Below are positions 17,527 through 31,641 of a DNA stretch of 64,000 nucleotides, in pieces (positions within the stretch are counted from its first letter, which is position 1; the number at the start of each line of letters is the position of its first letter). The position numbers and the translations under genes were made by a program. Source of the DNA: Protoeuglena noctilucae (lineage: Eukaryota); contig OY253668.1 in the NCBI GenBank assembly GCA_958009085.1, forward strand, positions 868,001 through 932,000, read 5' to 3'. The notes under the pieces were generated by a model that ran no database searches, had not been told where the DNA came from, and saw nothing but the letters and a program-made list of their open reading frames with translations.

Positions 17527-20443
17527 TCAGTTAATAACATGTGAGCGCGACAATGACATGCTCTGCACCGCCGACAGCGACGCGCGCAATTCACGGATCA
17601 TCCCTCGCTGGACCTCCAGCTCGTGCTTCAGCTGGGACGTGTGGGCCAGGCCTTGATTCGCATGCTGCAGGCCCTCCAGCCGCAACTTGAGTTCACGCAC
17701 CTCCTCCTGAAGAGCGGCCGCTCTCTTTTCCGCGTCATCTGGAAGGGGTCGTGGTATGACGTCAGGGTGTGCTGCGCGGGGGTCAGGTCGCAGCAGCTGC
17801 CCTCCTCCCCGCCTTACCTCGGTCTGCCCGGGCCTGCCTCAGCGCTGCCATGACTTCCGCTGCAGACCCCGTCGCAACCCCCGCGCCCCCCGGCAGCCCC
17901 GCTGCCCCCTCTGCCCTCCTCTGCGTGTCAGCCAGGTCGAGCCGCACGTCCGCCGCCTCTGCCGCGTCCGACGCCAGGACGGCACGGCAGTACGCCTGCA
18001 GACACGTGAACGCTCGTCATGCCGACCGGGTGACCCATCAGCTCGCGCGCTCATAGTGGCCTCTGCCGCACCTCGAGACGGCGCCGCGCGACCCGGCCGC
18101 GCCATACGCGCTGCACCTCCGTCGCAGCGCGAGACATGACGGCAAGGTCGTCCAATGAAAAGCCTCTCGAGGTCTCGCCCTCGACATCCCGGCGATGGCC
18201 ACCTGCCCTCGCGTGGGCACCTGGGCCAGCGGTGCTGGCGGCCTGCAAGAAAGGGAGCAGAGCATGGCATCAACTCTCTGGACCTCAGCCTGTGATGTCA
18301 ACCGCAAGCGACGAGGTCGGCGTCCACGCTCACCCCATGACTCGCATGCGAGCTTGGTGCTGCGCTGGACGGGGCATGGTGGGATGAGGGGCCAAGCGTA
18401 CCCCCACGAAGCCGTTCATTCTCCACCTGCAGCGCCGCCGCGAGCGCCCTGGCGTCGTCAAGCTCCTTCAGCGCAATCCGCGCACTCTGCAGGTATGAGC
18501 CGAGACCCCGACCCTTGTTCTTGCCTGCCGTGTTCCAACGAAGAGGCTGTTTCCAGCCGCGCCAAACGCACCCTGAGAGCCGTGCACGCCACGTTTGCTA
18601 GCTGCCGCTTCGACATGCCCCCTCGCCCAGCCGCCAGGAAGGGGAGGGGCGTCTCGGCACCCCTGTCCGACCGGTGCATGGACCGCCCCACGTCCGATCC
18701 CAGATCCTGGGACCGTAATACCCCCGGGCTCGGTGGGTACGGCCGCGTGTCCATGCGAGTGTAACCTGCATTCCAGAGCGGCGATGGGTTCACCAGGCTG
18801 TGCCGCCACGCCCGCCGCCCCGCATGCACGACTTCAGCCACGTACCAGCCTCGCCCTCCTTTGCCGCCTCGGGCGGGTGGCCCGGCCCGACGACCCCGGA
18901 GATCGCAACCCGCCGGACAAACGGTTTCTCCACGACCCCACTGGCAGTGGCGCTGGCAATTTCCCTGCGTCAGAGAACGAGCTCCATGCGTGCACAGGGA
19001 ATATGGTCGCCGTGCCTTGCATGGGCAGAGGTCCGTGCAGGAGCAGGGCAGGCCGCGAAGTCAGTGACACCCCGCGGGCCATGCCCATCACTCGCACTCA
19101 CGAGACGTGCCCCGTGGCTCCCCCCTCCGTGGGGTCCATCGCGACGAGGTGCGCCATGTCATTGACGGCGTTCATGGCCATGGACATCATTTTCACGAAC
19201 TCCGCCCAGTTGATCTCCCCTGCGCAGCGCACGCCAAGGGTGGGGTGTCGCAGCTGCTCGGCAGTGCGGAGGGTGGACAGCACGCAGGCACCACGCACCC
19301 GACCCATCCCTGTCGGCCAGGCGAAAAAACAAAGCCAGCTCCTCTTCAGATAGAGGGTCGCCCATTTCCGTCATGAAGCGCTGGAACTCGGCCTGCAGGG
19401 GCGACGCAGGGGACACCGTCGTGACTTGGCCCTGCGAGCCTCCCCGTACCCTTGCCAGGCGCTCCCGTCACCTTGGAGATGGTCCCGCTTTTGTTGTCAT
19501 CGAGCGCCTCGAACGCTGCCTGGAGGACGTGCAGCTCCTCATCCGCGCGCTTGGCGTAGTGGAACCACAGGACCGTGAACTGCGGGGGGCCGGTGTGGCG
19601 TTCCAGGTTGCCCTTATCGACTTGCAAGAAGGCGCGGCCTGGACAAAGGCCCCTTTGTGACGATTACCTCGATGACGTTGATCGTCCCTGTCTTGCTTGG
19701 GTCGATGCCGTGCTGCTTCATGAGGAGCTCCATTTGCACGCGGCTGCGGGCGACGCAGAGGTAGCTGGAGTGCTGGTACTGCCGCGTGCTTCCGGTCGCT
19801 TAACAACAGGCCAGCTGCGCACCACGGATTATACCCCAGCATGTTCATCGCCTTGATCGCCGCCTCGTGGGAGATGTAGCCCGTGCCCTTGTGGTCCTCC
19901 AAGGAAAAGCAGTGCTGCACCTCCTCCATGACATCGTCGTGAACCATGTACTGCACGACCTCTGCGCAGAACGCTGAGAGCAGCCGGGTTATGCAATCCC
20001 TTCAGCGCACACCGCTGAGAGCAGCCGGGTCATCCCACCCTGCGACCGCCCCTGCGCGCACGGATCTTGGCCGCGCGTCCCCGATAGCACAATTCAGATC
20101 AAATATGATACACTAGCGACGGCACCTGGAAGGACGGTGATGCGAGGCGCGTCGTTGTGGTCCTCGAGCGCCCCGCCTGAGAAACACAGCCTCATCTGCG
20201 CGACCAGGCGGGCGGTCATCTGTACGTGTGCATTTGTCAAAGATCTCTCAATGGCATGCTGCAGGATGACGCATCGGATTGCCCGCGCTCCGCCATGACT
20301 CCCGACATGGGCGCCGCCCATGTGGCAAAGGCCCTCCGACTCACCCGGCCCTTCATGGAGCGCGTCCGTTGCATGCGGCCTGGGGTTTGCCCGGGCGATG
20401 CCGCCGACTGCGGCTGCGGCGTGCTCTTGGGTCCTTGCCCCAT
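17527..20443 (-). CDS. Calmodulin-like EF-hand protein, apparently continuing by splicing into an IQ-motif/coiled-coil C-terminus
   Basis: EF-hand loops DHKGTGYISHE, DPSKTGTINVIE, DDNKSGTISKAE and DRDGSGEINWAEF. IQ motif AATEVQRVWRGRVARRRL near 18075-18130. The apparent stop at 19098-19100 lies inside a GTGAGT donor. Both gene ends are uncertain. Confidence 0.6.
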
Positions 20444-20896
20444 CGCCACGCCCCCCACCCTACACAAATGGAGACAAGGCCCGCCGACTCCAGCGGCGGC
20501 TTGGCCCTGCACAAAAAGGTCTTTATATCAACATAAAGCTGGCGTTCAGGCGGCGTCGGCAATGCCCTCGGCGAGCGGCGCAGCCACGCGGCCAGCTCCC
20601 GCGGCTTTCCCCTTCCAACGCTAAGCTGCGCGGCGCTGCAGATGGGCGCGGGCAGTTCATCACAAAGGGGCACTGTGCATCACGGGACGCGGCGCTGAAG
20701 CGCCAGTGATGCGCCAGTGTTGGATCGTTATCTGACTTGCCGCGCCGCAGCTTCGCCATCTCACCATCTTGCAGACTTTCGCGGCCCGAGAGTGCCATTC
20801 AAAAAGGGCATCAAACAACTACGGCTGCGCGCGGCTGGGCTGCAGCGTGCAAACGGCCGCCGGTCTGGCGGCCATCTCAAAGAGCAACAAGGGGCC

Positions 20897-23800
20897 TCAA
20901 GGCCGCAAAATCCTCGTGACAGTCTTGCTGCTAGTCCCCGGCTCCGTCTGGCCGTGCAGCGCGACGACCGCCCCGCCCGTGAAGAGCCCCCTGTCCCGGG
21001 CGAACTGGACGGCCCGGCCCAGGAGGGCGTCGATGTTGCTGATGTCCCCCAGGTCGTCCACCAGGAGCGCGTACTGCCCGAACGACAGGTTGACTTGCCG
21101 GCTGAGGACGGCGTTGTTGGTGACGATGATGCAGGGCACGCGGGGGCGGTACTTGGACACGAGGCGGGCCGCCTCGCCGTGCTCGTCCACCACCACGGCC
21201 AGGGAGGCGTGCACGTCGACCGTGGCCTCTGCGATGGTGGTCGCGGCCGACTCGAGCGTGCTGAGCGGCCGGGACGTGAAGTCCTCGATGAAGATGCCCA
21301 TGGCGTAGTAGTTGCACGCCCCCTCCGTGTTGCGCACGATGGCCGCCGCCGTCTCCACCACCTCGACGGGGAAGTCGCCCACGGCCGTCTCACTGGCGAG
21401 GAGGATGGAGTCGGCGCCGTCCACAACACAGTTGGCCACGTCCGTCATCTCGGCCCGCGTCGGCCGCGGGTTGCTCGCCATCGAGTGGAGCAACTGCCGC
21501 GCGATCGTCACGGGCTTGCCCGCGACGTTCGCCTTGGTCGTCAGCACCTTGGAGGCGAGCAGCACCTTCTCGGGCGTCACTTCCAGCCCCAGCGCACCGC
21601 GCGCCACGACGATACCGTCCGCCGCAGCCAGGATCTCGTCGATGTGCTTGATGCCGTCGACCGACTCGATCTTGGCGATGACGCGCGCCGAGTCGCACCC
21701 GATCTCGGCCAGCGTCTCGCGCACGTCCTCGATGACGCGTGCCGACCCCACGCGTGACACCTCCACGAAGTCGGGCTGCACGTCGCGCACGAACGTCACG
21801 TCGGAGCTCTCCTTGAAGTTGAAGTACCCCGACTGCGCGATGCGGCCGAGGACGCCGAAGGCCTTCTTGGAGCCCAGCTTGGCCGTGTTGATGGCCTTGC
21901 ACTGGTACTCGGCGTCCGACAGGCGCGCCACCACGCGGAAGGCGATGATGCCGTCGCTGATCATGAGCACGTCGCCCTTGTCGAAGGTCGGCGCGAGCTG
22001 CCACCACGCCACCCCGACGCGCGCGTCCTTGCCGTCGGACCACCCCGTGAAGAGCTCGGGCGCCCGCTGCACCTCGTCGTGCGAGCGGAAGTAGACCGTC
22101 ACGTCCTGGTCGGCCTTGATGTCGATCTTCTTGGCGGGCGAGCCGTCGGCGTTGACCACGTCGCACGTGTACATGCTCGGCGCCGTCAGCGACACGGTCA
22201 GGGGCACCGGGCGCCCCGCGCGCCGCGACGCCTCGGCCAGGGCCGCAGCCAGCTGCCGATTGTCGTCGTGCGACCCGTGCGACAGGTTGATGCGGGCCAC
22301 GTCCATCCCCGCATCGATGGCCCGCTGCAGCACCTCCGGCGTCCGCATGGCCGGCCCCAGGGTCACCACCAGCTTGGTCTTGCGTGCCGGCGCGTCCGGC
22401 TTAATGAGCATGTCCAGGTCGATGTTGACGGCGCGCAACGAGAGCGTCTTGGACACGATCTGCTTGTCCGTGTACTTGGCCGGCTGCGCCACGCCGAGCT
22501 CGTTGAAGTTGAGCCGGCCCGGCGCCATCGTGATGTAGAGCTGCCGCTCTGGGTTGACCTCCGTGTCGGCCGCCGCCTTGTCGAAGCCCAGGACGAGCGT
22601 CGACGTGATGACGATGACCTCCTTGCCCGAGACGCACAGCTTGTCGCGGACGGCCATGTTCATGGCCAGCCACACCTGCTGCTGCACCTCCTTGGCGTTC
22701 TTGGGCAGCGCCGCAATCACGTACGGGTAGACGCCGTAGAGCGTCTGGCACCGGCGCGCCAGGCCCGGGTCCGTGGTCAGCACCATGACCGGGACCGAGG
22801 GGCGGTACTTGGCCAGCATGGACGGCATCTTGCCGGCCTCCGAGAAGACCACGATGAGGCCCGGAACGATCTCCGTCGCCGTCTTGACCGCGCACGACGC
22901 CACGGCCTCCACCGTCCCCACCGGCTTGGCCGTGTACTCGTGGATGAACTCCCAGTTCTGGTAGTGGTTGATGCCGATCTCGGCGGACGTCACGATGCGG
23001 CTCATGACGGCCACGGTGGCGTCCGGGAAGTCGCCATTGGCCGTCTCACCCGACAGCATGACGGCGTCGACGCCGTCGAAGACCGCAGACGCCACGTCCG
23101 TCATCTCGGCGCGCGTCGGGAAGGGGTTGCTGATCATCGACTCGAGCATCTGGGTCGCGCAGATGACGAACTTGCCCGCGATGTTGGCCTTGGTAATCAT
23201 CCACTTCTGCGCCAGGGGGACCTTCTCCACCGGGATCTCCATGCCCAGGTCGCCCCGCGCCACCATAATGCCGTCCGTCTCGGCCAGGATGTCGTCGTAG
23301 TTGCGCAGTCCCTCGAAGTTCTCGATCTTGGAGATGATCTTGATCTTGTGCCCCCCCGCCTCGTCCAGCACGCGCCGGATGAAGCGCACGTCCTCGGCCG
23401 ACTGCACGAACGACGCGGCCACGTAGTCCATCTTGTGCTTGCACGCGAAGTTCTGCAGGTCGTCGATGTCCTTGTCCATCAGCACCGGCAGGTCGACCTT
23501 GACCCCCGGCAGGTTGCAGTTCTTGCGCTGCCCCAGCTCCTTCGTGTTGAGCACGCGCCCCCGGAGCTCCGTCTCGCTCAGGATCTCCACCACCTCGATC
23601 GACACCGTCCCGTCCGCCAGCAGGATCTTGTTCCCCGGCTTGACCGACTGGCACAGCTTGCTGTACGACAGCCCAATGCGCGTCTCCTTGTCCGTCTTGT
23701 ACCCCTCGAACTGCGTGTACCGGTCGCCCACCGCCTCCACCACGATGTCCTGCCCCGCCTCCAGCGTGATGTTCTTGCCCTCGCGCAGCATGGCCGTGCG

Positions 23801-26800
23801 GATCTCCGGCCCCTTCGTGTCCAGCAGCGTCGCGGCGTGGCTGCCCCGGCGCATCGTGGCCTCACGGAAGCGGGCGAGGACCTGCCCGTGACCCTCGTGG
23901 TCCCCGTGGGAGAAGTTGAACCGGGCGACGTTGAGGCCGGCATCGATGAGCTTGCCGAGGTTCTCGCTCGACCAGCACGCGGGGCCGAGCGTGCAGATGA
24001 TCTTGGTCTTGCGGCGGACGAAGGCGAACTTGTTGATGTCCAGGAGCGTGTCGAGGCCGATCTTGGTGGAGCGGTAGAACATGGTGCGCGGGCCGGGGTA
24101 GGCGGACGTGGTGAGCTTGTCCACCACGCCGCCGGGGTGGCCCACCACGATGCAGCGCATGGTGAGGCGCTGGTCCTCGACGCGCTGCTGCCCCGGGCGG
24201 CGGTGGACGACGACGACCTGGTCGCCCTCCTGGAGGGACAGCAGGCCCATGTTGTTGCAATACTGGACGAGGAGGGGCAGGGCGTCGTTGATGCGCTGGA
24301 AGCGCTGCCCGGGCAGGAAGAGGCCGCACTGCCCGAAGCGGGAGCGGCACGACGCCGCCAGGGTCGGGTTGTCCGTCATGACGAAGACGGGCTGCCGGGG
24401 GCGGTACTCGGATACGAGGCCGGCGGCGCGCCCGGACGAGGTGAGGACGAGGATGGCGCGGGCCTTGATGTCGATGGCCGTCTGCACGGCCGAGTTGCAG
24501 ATGGACTCGGCGTCCGACATGGGCTTGGGGGTGCGGTTGCGGATGAACTTGAAGAGCCGCTGCGTCTCCACCAGCTGCTCCGCGTTCTGCATGATGGCCG
24601 CCATCGTCGACACCGCCGCGTCCGGGAAGTCGCCGTTCGCCGTCTCGCCCGACAGCATGACGGCGTCCACCCCGTCCAGCACGGCGTTGGCCACGTCGGT
24701 CATCTCGGCGCGCGTGGGCCGGGGGTTGCCGATCATCGACTCGAGCATCTGGGTCGCGCAGACGACGAACTTGCCCACCAGCTGGCACTTGGTGATCATC
24801 CACTTCTGCGCCAGAGGGACCTTCTCGGGCGAGATCTCCATGCCCAGGTCGCCCCGCGCCACCATGATGCCGTCCGTCTCACGAAGGATGTCATCAAAGT
24901 TCTGCGACGGCGACGGGTGCGATGCGCTCGTCAGCACAGGATCGCAGATGCCGCTGAAGACAGCCTTACCGCCGACAGCACTTCCGCGCCACGCATCGGC
25001 GGGCACGCACCTTGAGGCCCTCCGAGTTCTCGATCTTGGAGATAATGCGGATTTGCTCTCCGCCAGCCTCGTCCAGCACGCGCCGGATGAAGCGCACGTC
25101 CTCGGCCGACTGCACGAACGACGCGGCCACGTAGTCCATCTTGTGCTTGCACGCGAAGTTCTGCAGGTCGTCGATGTCCTTGTCCATCAGCACCGGCAGG
25201 TCGACCTTGACCCCCGGCAGGTTGCAGTTCTTGCGCTGCCCCAGCTCCTTCGTGTTGAGCACGCGCCCCCGGAGCTCCGTCTCGCTCAGGATCTCCACCA
25301 CCTCGATCGACACCGTCCCGTCCGCCAGCAGGATCTTGTTCCCCGGCTTGACCGACTGGCACAGCTTGCTGTACGACAGCCCAATGCGCGTCTCCTTGTC
25401 CGTCTTGTACCCCTCGAACTGCGTGTACCGGTCGCCCACCGCCTCCACCACGATGTCCTGCCCCGCCTCCAGCGTGATGTTCTTGCCCTCGCGCAGCATG
25501 GCCGTGCGGATCTCCGGCCCCTTCGTGTCCAGCAGCGTCGCCCAGGACGGCTTGCACGGCAGCAGCTTGGAGTCCTTGAGCTTCTGTGCCTTGCGCTCGC
25601 TGGCGTTGCGGAAGCGCTCCAGCACCTTGAGGTGCCCGTCGTGGTCCCCGTGGGAGAAGTTGAAGCGCACGATGTCGAGGCCGGCGTCGAGTAACTTCTC
25701 GATCTTGTCCTCGTCCCACGACGCGGGGCCGATGGTGCAGACGATCTTGGTCGCCCGAGGGCGGTGCACGGGCTTGTTGATCAGGTCGAGGTTCGTGCGC
25801 GTCGACCGCAGGGACACGGTGCCCGGGCGAATCACCTGCACGCAGCCACACGGGCACGAGGGGCTCGGCGCTGGCGACGGGGCTGCAACGCGGGGGCGGC
25901 GCTCATATGGGGCCAGGCCCTCGGCAAGGAAGGAACCCACAGCGGCAGCCCTCACCGCTGGTGCGCCGGAGGACATGGTGAGGCGGGCGGCCGACGCCAG
26001 GGCGTTCTGGAGCTTGCCCACTCCGACGACCGTGGTTGACACGACCGGGTCCTCCTCGGCCCACAGCTGGCCGTGCCCCGTCACGACGATCGCCTTGACG
26101 ATGCCCGGCTTGAGGTTGTACATCTTCTGCACGTGCGCCACGGCAGCCTGCGCACGGCGAGACCGGCACCGTCACGCTCGAGGAGTCCGGGGCGCGTGGA
26201 CGTCCCCCTCTACCGCCCTGGAAGTGTCCCTGGCGCCCCCCGCCCTTGCGCCTTACGCTTGCGAGCCCTCACCTCAGCGAGGCCCTCCGCATCGGGGCGG
26301 TCCCACATGAGAGGGAACTGGGCAAAGCAGCCCGAGGTCTGGCGGAAGACGATGTCGCTGTTGGTGGCCACGACGACGGGGCACGGGGGGCGGTACTTGG
26401 ACACCAGCGCGGAGGCGTGGCCGGTGCTCGAGGCCACCACGATGACGGCGCTGAGGGGGCTGGCGGCGTCCGTCATAGCCGCCGTGTCCATGAAGTCGAT
26501 GGCCGTGTTCGAGACGGTAGAGAGCAGGGCTTCCGCCTGCAGGAAGTGGGTGGGCAGCAAGGGCGACCTTCAGGCCCAGGGGCGACCCGCTCGCCTGCCA
26601 GGCCGCGCAGGTGAGAGCCTGCGCCCACTCTCTCCGCCCGCGCGCCGCACCTCAGGCATGGCAAGGGTCCCGCCGAGCGTGTTCCAGAAGCGGAGGAAGC
26701 TGTATTGCTGCTGGACGTCCACGCCGACCTCGGCGTCGCGGACGATGCCGGCCATGGTGGCCACCGCGATGGCGGGGAACTCCCCGTTCGCCGTCTCGCC

Positions 26801-28630
26801 GGAGAGCATGACGGCGTCGACACCATCGTACACAGCGTTGGCCACGTCGGTCATCTCGGCGCGCGTGGGCCGGGGGTTGCCGATCATCGACTCGAGCATC
26901 TGAGTCGCGCAGATTACGAACTTGCCCGCGATGTTGCTCTTGGTGATGATCTGCTTCTGCGCGATGGGCACTTTCTCGGAAGGAATCTCCATGCCCATGT
27001 CACCGCGCGCCACCATGACGCCGTCCGTCTCGGCCAGGATGCCGTCAAAGTTCTGCAACACAAGGTGGGGGCCACTTCACACGCCAGCCACCCTGACAGC
27101 GACGCGGCACCGGCAGCGAGCACAACTCGGGCCACGCACCTTCAGTCCCTCGAAGTTCTCGATCTTGGAGATGATCTTGATCTTGTGCCCCCCCGCCTCG
27201 TCCAGCACGCGCCGGATGAAGCGCACGTCCTCGGCCGACTGCACGAACGACGCGGCCACGTAGTCCATCTTGTGCTTGCACGCGAAGTTCTGCAGGTCGT
27301 CGATGTCCTTGTCCATCAGCACCGGCAGGTCGACCTTGACCCCCGGCAGGTTGCAATTCTTGCGCTGCCCCAGCTCCTTCGTGTTGAGCACGCGCCCCCG
27401 GAGCTCCGTCTCGCTCAGGATCTCCACCACCTCGATCGACACCGTCCCGTCCGCCAGCAGGATCTTGTTCCCCGGCTTGACCGACTGGCACAGCTTGCTG
27501 TACGACAGCCCAATGCGCGTCTCCTTGTCCGTCTTGTACCCCTCGAACTGCGTGTACCGGTCGCCCACCGCCTCCACCACGATGTCCTGCCCCGCCTCCA
27601 GCGTGATGTTCTTGCCCTCGCGCAGCATGGCCGTGCGGATCTCCGGCCCCTTCGTGTCCAGCAGCGTCGCGGCGGACCACCCCCGCTCCTGGCAGACCTT
27701 GCGGAAGCGGGCGAGGACCTGCCCGTGACCCTCGTGGTCCCCGTGGGAGAAGTTGAACCGGGCGATGTTGAGGCCCGCATCCAGGAGCTGCGCCAGCTTG
27801 TCCTCGCTCCAGCAAGCCGGGCCCATCGTGCAGACGATCTTCGTCTTGCGGAAAGTCACGTTCTCGTTCATAATCATGTCGAGATCCACGTACGTGTTGC
27901 GCTCCGTGATGGTGTCATTGGACACGTGGGGCGGCTTGAAGGCCGGCGGCTCGTACTCGGGAGACCACTCATTGGCCAGGCGCTCCTTGAGCACGGTGAT
28001 GGTCGCCGCCTCGATGCTGACGCGGTGCTGCGCACATCGCGAGAAGGCAAGGTCGGGGCCCTCGCGCCGGCGGAGGAGCGGGGAATCAGGCCTCCCAGGG
28101 GTCCCGCTCACCAGGCGCGCAATGTCCCTCAGGGCGGCAGGCGCCGCAGCTCGCTCCGCATCGTCCGCCTCCAGCCCGTCCATGACGGCGGGCTCGTCGG
28201 CAACAGGGACACTGCGGCGGGCCCATGGCAGGGTGCTGTCGGCCCGGCCCGGCACCAACCCAGCCCCCTCCGACGCCCCCTCCCCTCCAGGCACTCACTC
28301 GTCCATCTTGTTCTTCAGGATGCTCCTCTTCGGCGCCAGCGCCTCCTTCCCCGACCGGCTTGCGCGCGATGGCTCGTGCGACCTCTCCCCCCTCTGCGCA
28401 GGGCACACGAGGGAGCTCGTGACGCGGTGAGCAGGATCGCTAAAGCAAGCGAACGCGACTGTCGAGGGGAGTATCGCGGGGGGAGGATCACAGCAGCTGC
28501 TGGGCAGCAGCAGGGCCCAAGGGGGTGGCCGACGCGGACAGCGGCCGCTCCTCTCCGCCCCGCCGGGGAGACCAGGATCAAAATCGCAAAAACCACGCTG
28601 ACGCCATCCCGAGAGCGGCATCGCCGCCAT
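20897..28630 (-). CDS. Pyruvate kinase polyprotein with four tandem PK units (roughly 2,200 aa); 5' end uncertain
   Basis: The unit TKI(V/I)CT.GP...ARFNFSHG...[10 protein letters not shown]...ISKIEN...MVARGD.G.E...ATQMLESM...VMLSGETA plus C-domain occurs three times, then a fourth divergent unit. Introns at about 28212-28297, 28029-28112, 27054-27140, 26538-26650, 26148-26274, 25836-25955 and 24903-25011 keep the frame open. Confidence 0.9.
23358..27670. repeat. Three nearly identical 476-bp dispersed direct repeats within the PK gene (23358-23833, 25066-25541, 27195-27670)
   Basis: Direct comparison shows the same sequence from GCCTCGTCCAGCACG to CAGCAGCGTCGC. The only difference I found is the A/G at 27356 (synonymous Asn codon). 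Confidence 0.92.
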
Positions 28631-29551
28631 CGGGAGCGCCGGGGGCCTCGGAAAAGAGCGGCCCACCACTCCACCCGGCGCAGCTGTCGCCGTAGGAGGT
28701 ATCCGGAGGACGAGGCGAGCCGCTCCGATCAGAAACGATCCCGAAGATGCCGGGGAGCGGGCGCATGCGCGGAGGGGACGCGAACGGCGGGGGCGGCCAG
28801 GGCCCCACACGTCCGGGGGCCTCCCGGCGACGCTGAGCCGCGCGCCAATTGCGCAGGCGCAAAGAGGGCCTCCTCAGATCGCACTCGCGAGGGGAGGGGG
28901 TCGCGTATACCGCCAGCGGCGCCAAGGTCAAGGCCCAACGACTCGAACGCATTCGCGAGCGAAGCGGAGGGGCAGGAAAGAGTCCCGAGGGGCCGTACCC
29001 GACGTCCGCAACGCGAGCGCGGGCACCCACGCGGGGTATGCGGCAGCCGCGAGCGGCGCGGAGGGGGCAGGGGGGGGGAGCACTCACGAGCGCCCCTGGG
29101 GACCAGCGGCGCAGGAAAGGGGCATCCGCATGCAGCAGCGATACCATCGGAGTAATATCGTTACGGGGTGGGGCGCAGGCGGCTCACCGGCGAGCCCTTG
29201 CCCGCGCTGTTGCCCATCCCGCGAGGGCCACGTCGCGCGGTGGGGCTTCCACGACGCCGGGGTCTGGATAGCTCGAAAAGAGACGATATGTGCCCGGACG
29301 AGGGCCATCGGCGGCCCCAAGCGCGGGGATGAGGATGCAGCTCTGGCACCTTTTTCTGGCAAGGGCAAACATGTATTTGGGTCTCCCACTGCGCCGGACG
29401 ACCCGGGCGACGTGGCATATATCGCGTTCCGGAGCCAAGTGTCTTCGTGCAATCGGGGCAATTGTGTTAACGGCATCTCCCCGCTGATCTCTTGGGAATA
29501 GGCTGGCTGTCAAGAGCTCGCCACCCCTGCCCGCGGCGAACCGGCGTGACC

Positions 29552-31641
29552 ATGGAGGCGTTGTGTGTCTCCCGCGGCGTCGCGGCGGCCATCTCGTCGA
29601 AGCGCAGCGTGGCTTGCCGTGCGCCCCTGACCAGAAGGCGAGGCCTCGCTCCGCCTGCCGCGCTCGGCAGCCGCATGGCCTTCTTTGCGACGGCGTCGCG
29701 CTCCCAGCGGGGCGCACGACACGCTGGGGAGGGCCCTCGGGAGCTGTGCGGGTCGTTCCTGCCTTGTGCACGCGTCGCGAGCCTTTGCGGAACTATCCTT
29801 TGCATGACGATGTGGGCATTCTGCGAAGTCGACCGTGGGGCTGTCTGCCTGGGCCAGTCGCGCCAAACCGATCCGAACAGACAGTTCCCCCGATTTCCGC
29901 GGTCGAGCGGTCGGGGCGCCGTACGAGCGCCTGCTGCAGTCGAGTTCGGTCTCGTGCGCGTTGTTGTCGCTGCGGACCGGCCGCGCAGCCCCCGTGTTGT
30001 CAGATTTCACCCGGAATACCTTGCAGCCCCTGGCCCCGCGTCCCGCGCCCTTGCCGAGGGGGACGGCGCCGCCTTCCTGTCGCGATGAAGGCCAGATATC
30101 TACTGATGGCGAGTTTGCCCACTAGCGTGTGCGGAGCGCGTCGGAACACGCCCTGCCTCTCTTGGCCCGCGCAGTCCTGCGGCAGGCCGCGCGCGCGCGT
30201 CCTGTGCCCTGCACCGGTGCAATGTGAGGTGTGACGCGGAGGACGGCGCATCCTCTCTCTCCACGTCGTCGGGCGACAAGACGGAGTTTGTTGCCGAGAC
30301 GCTGCTGCCGACGCGGGCGGGGAAGTTCCGCGTCCGGGCGTACAAGCACACGGTGAGCACATGTCCCGGAGCTGGAATCGCCCTCGTCTGACCGCCGCGC
30401 CCTGTCGTGTCGGCCGGCGCACGCCCCCGATGACGCGCATGTGCTCGTGGGTCGTCCCGGTGCGATCCCCTCGACCGGGGCGTGCATCGGGTCGTCCGCG
30501 AGAACGTGACGGCGCTCGTGCATCGACGTCTGGATCCGCGCCCCGCGCCCGTGCTCGAGACCCTTCTCGGGGCTGCGTTGACCGCGCGCGCTTGCTTGGT
30601 GACCTCGTGCACATCGGTTCCTGCGCGCCTCGCGTGCCGCCGTCCCCTGTTCTGTCGGTTCTGGCCGCGGGCGGCATCGCGTCTTCGCGGCGTCGACCGG
30701 GCGCGCGCGCGTGGCTCGCCACCCGGCATCTGCCGGGGCTGGCCCCCCCGCGCGGCCTGTTCCCCCGGACGGGCGTCCTGCTGCCCCCCGCGCTGCGGAG
30801 AACGGAGTGTCCACATGTTTCGGTGGCCTTGGCTCGGGAGTACCCCCCGAAGGCCGCGGTTCACGTTGATGGCCCCCGCAGGTGGACGGCTTGACGTACA
30901 ACGAGCCCGTCGCCATCATCCACGGAAACATCGAGGGGAAGTCGGCCGTACCAGTGCGGGTGCACGACGCCTGCTTCACGTCCGAGGTGCGCACGGCCAG
31001 GCCTCGCGCGTGTGGCGAGCCTCACGAGCGGCCAGCAGGGAGCCGCGACGCGAGACCTCCGCCTGCCTCGCCGCGCAGGTTCTCGGGTCGATGAAGTGCG
31101 ATTGCGCCGAGCAACTGCAGCAGGCGCTGGAGTACATCAAGCGGTCGCCGGACGGGGGCATGGTCATCTACCTTCAGCAGGAGGGTCGCGGGATCGGGCT
31201 GGCAAACAAGATTGCCGCGTACGCGCTGCAAGAGGAGGGATACGACACGGTGGACGCGAACCGTGCGCTCGGGCTGCCGGACGACTGCCGCGAGTACACG
31301 GCGGTGAAGGTGTGGCGCCTGGGGCGGCGGTTGTTGCACAACCTCCAGGGCCAGAGCTCCGGTCGCGCCAGTCGCTGTGCGGGCGACGTCCCCCCCCGCC
31401 CTCCTCGCAGAACATCATCAAGGACCTGGGCATCGCGTCGATCAAGCTGATGACGAACAACCCGCGCAAGATCCGCGTCCTGGCCTCGCTGGGCGTCCAG
31501 GTCGAGGACCGCATTGCGTGCATCGTCGAGGCCAACGAGGTCAACAAGGGGTACCTGGCTGCCAAAGAAACGCGCATGGAGCACCTGCTCGACCGCTCGT
31601 GGGACGAGACGTACCGCAACGCCGTCCCCGGGCCAGAGTGA
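29552..31641 (+). CDS. RIBA: GTP cyclohydrolase II (monofunctional RibA type) with probable plastid transit peptide
   Basis: [92 protein letters not shown]. The arrangement of the 5' exons is tentative. Confidence 0.92.

Follow-up and report, generated by a model that had tools for sequence, protein, structure and literature searches.

A single gene of Protoeuglena noctilucae encodes four pyruvate kinase units in one chain, the fourth apparently a conserved pseudo-enzyme

Introduction

Pyruvate kinase (PK) depends for its activity and its allostery on the tetramer, and human PKM2 depends also on the balance between tetramer and dimer. In ordinary homotetrameric PKs, such as those of Toxoplasma gondii (3eoe) and humans (PKM2), the tetramer consists of four separate chains of ~470–590 aa, and no built-in dead protomer has been reported for them. 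A 64,000-nt stretch of DNA from Protoeuglena noctilucae (NCBI GenBank assembly GCA_958009085.1, contig OY253668.1, positions 868,001 to 932,000 of the forward strand; hereafter the window) raises the question of whether four PK subunits can be encoded, and can assemble, as one polypeptide. An earlier interpretation made from the letters alone (hereafter the sequence-only reading) proposed that the minus strand of the window carries, between 20897 and 28400, four consecutive PK units with no stop between them, and that the resulting chain could fold as a covalently linked pseudo-tetramer of 3+1 make-up, in which diverged C-domains might provide several allosteric inputs.

This report focuses on that PK gene. 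The four PK units belong to one spliced gene, with one transcript and one reading frame. The predicted chain combines three units that look complete with one that has apparently lost its chemistry, and it belongs to a family of long PKs spread among the green algae. Its packing as a tetramer within the chain, which we regard as probable, is weighed below against its rivals.

Four pyruvate kinase units in one spliced gene

On the minus strand of the window, Pfam recognizes four PK barrel domains and four PK_C domains, all above the curated cut-offs and about where the sequence-only reading had placed its four units. The open reading frame (ORF) 20897–25186 (minus strand, 1429 codons) contains three stretches of PF00224 (PK; E 2.1e-251, 832.7 bits for a cut-off of 30) and three of PF02887 (PK_C; E 5.6e-55, 184.8 bits for a cut-off of 28). 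The first half of the unit 2 barrel (PK positions 2–231) lies in the ORF 24966–26171, and unit 1 is distributed over the ORF pieces 27077–28294 (PK positions 2–231, 231.5 bits), 26570–27076 (PK positions 230–328, 175.9 bits) and 26210–26569 (PK_C, 35.6 bits). Long frames arise by chance on both strands of the window because its G+C content is ~67% throughout; the PK signal is far above that chance level.

The unit borders were drawn with a profile of eight single-unit stramenopile PKs run on the spliced protein, and they fall close to those proposed earlier. Together with Pfam, this profile assigns unit 1 to aa 75–584 (27913–26058, minus strand, as for all units), unit 2 to aa 623–1146 (25823–24143) and unit 3 to aa 1165–1673 (24088–22562); unit 4, which is pseudo-catalytic by its active-site readout, occupies aa 1710–2226 (22453–20903). 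The units are joined by linkers of 38 aa (1/2), 18 aa (2/3) and 36 aa (3/4), and a 74-aa N-terminal segment (28306–27914) with a W-PEY-P motif conserved in the orthologues precedes unit 1. No Pfam family was found for the 59 aa encoded by 27850–28027, in the N-terminal segment just before the profile match of unit 1. Like ordinary PKs, each unit has the PK fold, and the solved structure closest to unit 3 by sequence is the Toxoplasma PK 3eoe (E 2e-128). No solved chain with two units was present among the best 60 sequence matches (≤587 aa) or the fold matches listed (≤524 aa).

Transcript evidence came from metatranscriptome contigs of three runs of one study (X8, X9, and X12) and was compared with metagenome DNA contigs of a different study (run X5), all aligned to positions 19500–30500 of the window. 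Eight GT..AG joints on the minus strand are present in the RNA contigs, and none of these occurs in the DNA run. By the contig ends and joints, the gene can be followed in RNA contigs over 20790..29278 (−), with its 3′ end near 20787–20806 and a 5′ exon that extends from 29188 to at least 29278. All four units lie inside the 20897–28400 interval of the sequence-only reading, although the gene reaches further upstream than that interval. The contigs of the downstream neighbour end at 20629–20638 and those of the PK gene start at 20787–20865, and this gap indicates that the PK gene is a separate transcription unit.

After removal of the introns, the frame is open for 2327 codons. The preferred model of the coding sequence (20897..28306, minus strand), which rests on the RNA joints and on translation of the spliced frame, starts at ATG 28306 and encodes 2227 aa (242.6 kDa) in the exons 28306–28299, 28211–28112, 28027–27140, 27052–26650, 26535–26272, 26146–25952, 25831–25011 and 24901–20897, the last including the stop codon. 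It aligns end to end with P0002, a four-unit relative of 2210 aa, with 1665 of 2210 positions identical (75%) and 7 gaps. In the 5′ exon, an in-frame ATG at 29217–29215 (minus strand) is followed by no stop before ATG 28306 and would add 39 residues that start MGNSAGK, a start which we take to resemble an N-myristoylation start. P0002 starts at the position that matches the downstream ATG (28306), not 29217.

The eight introns, all on the minus strand and all GT..AG, differ in where they fall and in how they are documented. An intron of 794 nt (28394..29187; joint in X8 and X9, absent from X5) lies in the 5′ untranslated region, or is the first coding intron if ATG 29217 is used. The same two RNA runs contain the joints of an 87-nt intron (28212..28298), of an 84-nt intron (28028..28111) and of an 87-nt, phase-0 intron within the unit 1 barrel (27053..27139). 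The remaining four are joined in X8, X12, and X9: 114 nt within unit 1 (26537..26650, cut shifted by 1), 125 nt in the unit 1 C-domain (26148..26272, frame-shifting, cut shifted by 1), 120 nt in the unit 1/2 linker (25836..25955, in frame and stop-free, cut shifted by 4) and 109 nt, phase 0, within the unit 2 barrel (24902..25010). The introns 27053–27139 of unit 1 and 24902–25010 of unit 2 interrupt the same homologous codon, after the GLK that follows KIEN; units 3 and 4 are without an intron there.

The sequence-only reading was right that the three unit junctions are open, and that the unit 1/2 junction stays open with or without its intron, since the ORF 24966–26171 runs through the intron in frame and without a stop. 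The 1369-aa uninterrupted ORF that it described is real (P0003), and so is the 120-nt intron, which is spliced out in all three RNA runs. Its broader statement that no stop separates the units holds for the spliced frame; the genomic frame is interrupted, as the stretch of units 1 and 2 contains five introns that need splicing (87, 114, 125, 120, and 109 nt), two of which shift the frame. Separate transcripts for each unit would have spoken against a single polypeptide; instead, RNA contigs bridge all three junctions in each of the three RNA runs, and no stop codon occurs at any of them. In X8 and X9, a spliced contig of 994 nt over 25512–26535 crosses junction 1/2, as does a contig of 648 nt in X12; RNA contigs over 23899–24713 cross junction 2/3, and RNA contigs over 20806–23161, 20865–23261 and 21414–23163 cross junction 3/4.

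Three complete active sites and a degenerate fourth unit

The active sites were read at 16 positions, aligned to the profile in all units of 21 four-unit proteins and in five single-unit PKs. These positions, which we take to be the relevant ones, are in human PKM numbering R73, N75, S77, D113, T114, K115, R120, K207, N210, K270, E272, G295, D296, T328, S362, and E364, with the offset of the numbering verified on a 531-aa PKM chain for R73, N75, and S77 only. Units 1, 2, and 3 are canonical at 16 of 16 positions each, including the substrate, K+ and Mg2+ residues, as are all five single-unit outgroups, and they appear on this basis to be catalytically complete. Unit 4 is canonical at 8 of 16, which bears out the 3+1 make-up that had been proposed. 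Its changes are D113S, T114L, K115T, R120Y, N210G, D296A (codon 21595–21593), T328R (codon 21499–21497) and S362A; D296 is an Mg2+ ligand. On the other hand, unit 4 retains R73, N75, S77, K207, K270, E272, G295, and E364.

The loss is old and uniform in its main feature. An Arg occupies the T328 position in all 10 proteins with a low-scoring fourth unit, namely the window protein, P0002, the Sanguina and Haematococcus proteins, P0013, Chlamydomonas PYK3, the Pleodorina protein, Volvox P0012, and the Ulva and Mesostigma proteins. D296 is lost in 9 of the 10 and Leu replaces T114 in 9 of the 10, Mesostigma being the exception in both cases. The presence of T328R in every relative of this type argues that unit 4 is a conserved pseudo-enzyme unit, and it is clearly maintained. 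It also evolves faster than its neighbours: between the window protein and P0002, unit 4 is 55% identical and units 1–3 are 80–84% identical.

Two relatives depart from this pattern in other units. In P0012 (Volvox africanus), unit 2 differs from its counterparts in the remaining PYK3-type proteins by four non-canonical residues, N75C, T114I, R120S, and S362L. P0032 (Cymbomonas tetramitiformis, 2294 aa) has non-canonical residues at several of the 16 sites in all four units, and may be either a wholly non-catalytic chain or a poor gene model.

Relatives and age of the four-unit architecture

The sequence-only reading had supposed that similar long PK models might exist in other chlorophytes, and had recommended a search for the PK/PK_C architecture across green algae. 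Such relatives are indeed numerous. A database search with units 2b–4 against proteins of 785–2501 aa gave 264 matches, and the PK profile was run on the best 120 of them; four units were found in 26 of these 120 matches listed (P0002, P0004–P0027, and P0032). They come from Chlamydomonas reinhardtii (two genes), Volvox, Pleodorina, Gonium, Astrephomene, Edaphochlamys, Haematococcus, Sanguina, Raphidocelis, Monoraphidium, Scenedesmus, Tetradesmus, Ostreobium, and Cymbomonas, and from entries coded ‘Ulvmu1’ and ‘Mesvir1’, which we read as Ulva and Mesostigma. All four units are intact in P0004, P0007, P0008, and P0009. Two- and three-unit relatives also occur among the matches listed, some of which are probably truncated models.

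The window gene is the unit-by-unit orthologue of the PYK3 type of Chlamydomonas (Cre05.g234700; CHLRE_05g234700v5, 2306 aa, P0010), with which it shares four colinear units and the N-terminal W-PEY-P segment, and to which it is 53% identical over units 2–4. In a careful tree of 27 rows, from which the converted block discussed below was omitted, units 1 to 4 each form one clade across six species, with support of 100/98 to 100/99. A quick tree of 49 rows gives the same picture, and in it the units of the P0019 type, described below, stay separate from those of the PYK3 type. Each unit is accordingly the orthologue of the unit with the same number in Ulva, Haematococcus, Sanguina, and Chlamydomonas, which makes the fusion old. 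The window protein shares the dead fourth unit, with T328R and the loss of D296, with PYK3 and with its Volvox, Pleodorina, Haematococcus, Sanguina, and Ulva orthologues. Given the unit-wise clades and this shared dead unit, the units were fused in their present order, and unit 4 was already dead, before the window lineage, Ulva, and the Chlorophyceae separated.

A second type of four-unit chain combines three intact units and one degenerate unit as well, and differs from the window protein in which unit is dead. In the six proteins of the P0019 type (P0019 and those of Gonium, Edaphochlamys, Raphidocelis, Monoraphidium, and Tetradesmus), it is unit 2 that is degenerate in all six, and the units fall in clades separate from the PYK3 type. 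P0019 itself (XP_001695738.1, 2430 aa) is presumably Chlamydomonas PYK1.

Chains with more than four barrels form another group. Those of the Symbiodiniaceae (P0044–P0062, ~2000–2400 aa) resemble the window protein in having several PK barrels per chain, but they contain five to six repeats that cover profile positions ~17–362 only, without the C-domain; other Pfam families are listed for them in the database, and they match only ~25% of the query. Unnamed marine proteins of ~2000–2400 aa also contain five to six tandem PK barrels without the C-domain. In still other multi-unit relatives, PK is fused to different domains: RIIa docking (P0094, E 6.5e-06), adenylate kinase (P0037, E 5.1e-49; P0150) or PH (P0075). 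RIIa and adenylate kinase domains are common in flagellar proteins.

A near-identical lid tract in the three active units

The three complete units share a tract of ~450–500 nt that encodes the lid (B) domain together with the neighbouring part of the barrel. As delimited by nucleotide comparison, its copies lie at 27145..27643 (unit 1), 25067..25514 (unit 2) and 23308..23806 (unit 3), all on the minus strand, and extend from a 10-residue motif (letters not shown) through the lid to the FIRRVL stretch of the barrel. Nucleotide identity among the copies is 100% over 150 codons, save for one window of 30 codons in the unit 1 copy (98.9%), and drops to 40–88% in the flanks. The tract ends 5 to ~55 nt upstream of the phase-0 introns 27053–27139 (unit 1) and 24902–25010 (unit 2).

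In the window protein, the block shows no amino-acid difference among units 1–3 (100% identity vs. 53–62% for the rest of the units). The contrast is nearly as strong in Haematococcus and Sanguina (94–99% for the block vs. 53–61% for the rest) and weaker in P0002 and PYK3, where the block is 79–89% identical; for PYK3 alone the values are 79–83%. Between the window protein and P0002, the lid block is only 79–81% identical. A tree built from the block alone groups the units by species, with the three window copies identical and with support of 100 for Sanguina and 98 for Haematococcus, whereas a tree built from the remaining columns groups them by unit and not by species. This pair of trees shows that the lid block evolves in concert inside each species and points to repeated intragenic gene conversion.

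Packing of the units and rival explanations

How would such a chain be arranged? We propose that it folds back on itself and that its units are arranged like the four separate subunits of an ordinary PK tetramer, units 3 and 4 meeting through their barrel (A) domains. Such a tetramer would be locked covalently, would have three active sites and would assemble independently of protein concentration. Repeated intragenic gene conversion would hold the lid stretches of the three active units nearly identical, and the dead unit 4 would keep the tetramer interface. Since unit 4 retains R73, K270, and E272 and carries a conserved Arg at the T328 position, binding of a phosphorylated ligand is conceivable, and the unit may act as a built-in regulatory protomer.

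Structure prediction bears on one part of this proposal, the pair formed by units 3 and 4. AlphaFold2 (AF2), run on both units together (1076 aa) with alignment A1 (16 rows), returned a model with a mean predicted local distance difference test score (pLDDT) of 84.3 and a predicted template modelling score (pTM) of 0.83, a pTM that seems above expectation for two halves placed independently. The best Foldseek match of this model is 3eoe_B, with a template modelling (TM) score of 0.94 on the target, and covers half of the model. A complex prediction of unit 3 against unit 4 scored 0.69, vs. 0.00 for the best of three controls; the 0.69 mark is reached by 51 of 78 solved complexes and by 2 of 108 mismatched pairs. 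The complex runs agree in ≥92% of contacts, with a partner pLDDT of ≥83, and bring segment residues 291–308, 325–350 and 366–385 of unit 3 against 843–859, 877–899 and 926–937 of unit 4. As the same three barrel segments are used on both sides, the predicted pair is pseudo-symmetric, and its barrel–barrel contact is one that we take to be the A–A interface of PK tetramers. In unit 4, the contact is centred on the motif PTRAEMTD, in which P889–M894 and D896 are invariant across the 16 rows of A1; this invariance suggests that the interface has been kept while the chemistry was lost. The pseudo-tetramer imagined from the sequence is a structural idea that is reasonable but unproven.

We consider it fairly probable that a nuclear gene of this marine green alga encodes one PYK3-type chain of ~243 kDa, with three complete units and one pseudo-unit, that is packed within the chain as a PK tetramer. 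Several points weigh against this assessment. PK tetramers have been solved many times, and both packing predictions may reflect memory of them; the complex run was made without the A1 alignment; the packing rests on predictions for the single unit pair 3+4; and both predictions fit pairing between chains equally well. At the level of the gene, the RNA contigs, from one study, break at the near-identical tracts, and no single record covers all four units; the start codon is ambiguous between ATG 28306 and the in-frame ATG 29217 of the 5′ exon. Furthermore, a ciliary location is known solely for the Chlamydomonas orthologue (PMC11244166), and the regulatory role of unit 4 is pure conjecture. 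We consider it possible, though less likely than not, that unit 4, rather than decaying, completes an intrachain hetero-tetramer as a regulatory or ligand-sensing protomer and that selection or frequent gene conversion keeps the lid stretch of the three active units identical.

The rival that comes closest accepts the chain as whole and lets its units pair between chains, which would give particles of at least eight units. The predicted interface of units 3 and 4 would form just as well in that arrangement, and the 2/3 linker, at only 18 aa, may hinder some intrachain pairings. We nevertheless rate it as rather unlikely, given that AF2 packs units 3 and 4 together within a single chain, with the pTM cited above, and that four, the exact number for one PK tetramer, is kept in 26 proteins among the 120 matches listed, although the number argument is not strict, as two- and three-unit relatives exist. 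Less likely still is a polyprotein cut in its linkers into PK monomers of ~55–60 kDa that would then assemble as ordinary tetramers, for which we see a small chance. Dinoflagellates do make polyproteins, and the multi-copy PK chains of the Symbiodiniaceae, with their five to six barrel-only repeats, lend the idea some plausibility; no result from the window favours linker cutting. The linkers are short, at 38, 18, and 36 aa, and the last of them contains the conserved motif ERQ...T.APG.L (alignment consensus), with central blocks of mean pLDDT 83 (531–540) and 57 (541–550) between low-confidence flanks (511–528 and 549–559). The identity and position of each unit are kept in six species, which free monomers would not need, and all 10 relatives of the type have kept the dead unit.

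The near-identical tracts also raise the question of an assembly artefact, or of four adjacent PK genes misread as one. At ~450–500 nt the tracts exceed short reads; short-read assemblies must break there, which explains why the RNA contigs stop only at the repeated tract, and with every short-read contig broken at these points the order of the unit halves is unprovable from contigs alone. RNA-uncovered bins such as 27207–27573 correspond to the repeated tract, where contigs collapse, and no conclusion is drawn from them. The DNA of the independent study, however, contains all the unique flanks as separate contigs, together with a tract contig (X5, 25066–25541) whose depth of 40.2, vs. ~15–17 in its neighbours, is explained by the collapse of three copies into one. 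In addition, RNA contigs cross every unit junction without meeting a stop codon, P0002 and 25 further proteins show four colinear units, and the unit-wise orthology matches the given order. Misassembly, like the four-gene alternative, is therefore very unlikely, to the point of being almost negligible.

Previous mentions and significance

The novelty implied by the sequence-only reading did not survive comparison with public data: the four-unit architecture is not new, being annotated in Chlamydomonas (PYK1 and PYK3) and in many other green algae, and gene models with four units have long been public. The literature names Cre12.g533550 as PYK1 (PMC8910624) and Cre05.g234700 as PYK3, the latter in a cilia methylome with a methylated R2261 (PMC11244166), a numbering that requires a PYK3 protein of more than 2260 aa. 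PYK3 also appears among the heat-tolerance hits of a mutant screen (bioRxiv 10.1101/2022.07.13.499508). A flagellar proteome lists PK among the glycolytic enzymes detected (PMC2171396), and a review mentions “an unusual pyruvate kinase” in the membrane and matrix fraction of Chlamydomonas flagella (PMC3499766).

The four-unit PK has thus at least been noticed in the flagellar literature. Mitchell and colleagues in 2005, or later reviews, reportedly mention a multi-domain build. Our literature search returned no text that describes a four-unit PK build, a conserved dead unit or concerted evolution of the lid, and the likely primary source lies outside its reach. The matching passages of PMC8175508 and PMC7729029 deal with different organisms, and PMC4106842 matched in its reference list only. 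The points not found in print are the T328R change as a conserved mark of the pseudo-unit, the existence of a type whose dead unit is the second, and the way in which the lid block evolves in concert.

The window adds one more orthologue to this family, one that RNA data support well and in which intragenic gene conversion is extreme. A four-in-one PK chain with one dead unit offers a natural system in which to follow the effects of covalent locking and of a silent protomer on cooperativity, and if unit 4 acts as proposed, nature would have locked a PK as a tetramer with built-in asymmetry. Such a chain may also show how an enzyme reaches a compartment such as the cilium whole, the Chlamydomonas orthologue being ciliary (PMC11244166). 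If the chain is indeed a locked tetramer, it could travel as one particle, for instance into a cilium, which for the organism of the window is speculation.

Neighbouring genes and minor observations

A separate spliced gene (19579–20638, minus strand) lies directly downstream of the PK gene on the same strand; its contigs end near 20629–20638, and four GT..AG introns are visible in them (19580–19667, 19744–19822, 19962–20125, and 20196–20344). At 29635–30173, upstream of the PK gene, a joint in RNA contigs of X8 and X9 skips 537 nt between non-canonical ends (AG..GC, plus strand).

Two further joints within the PK gene were set aside as repeats or as sequences of other organisms, since their sides are short and their ends non-canonical: 21731/22214 in the DNA run (side 23) and 27181/27639 in X12 (side 25). 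Finally, some RNA contigs of X8 and X9 match the window only at 25765–26251 and continue at both ends with 100–255 unlike letters; the matched stretch includes intron sequence, and its source may be a different strain, a paralogue or an unusual transcript.

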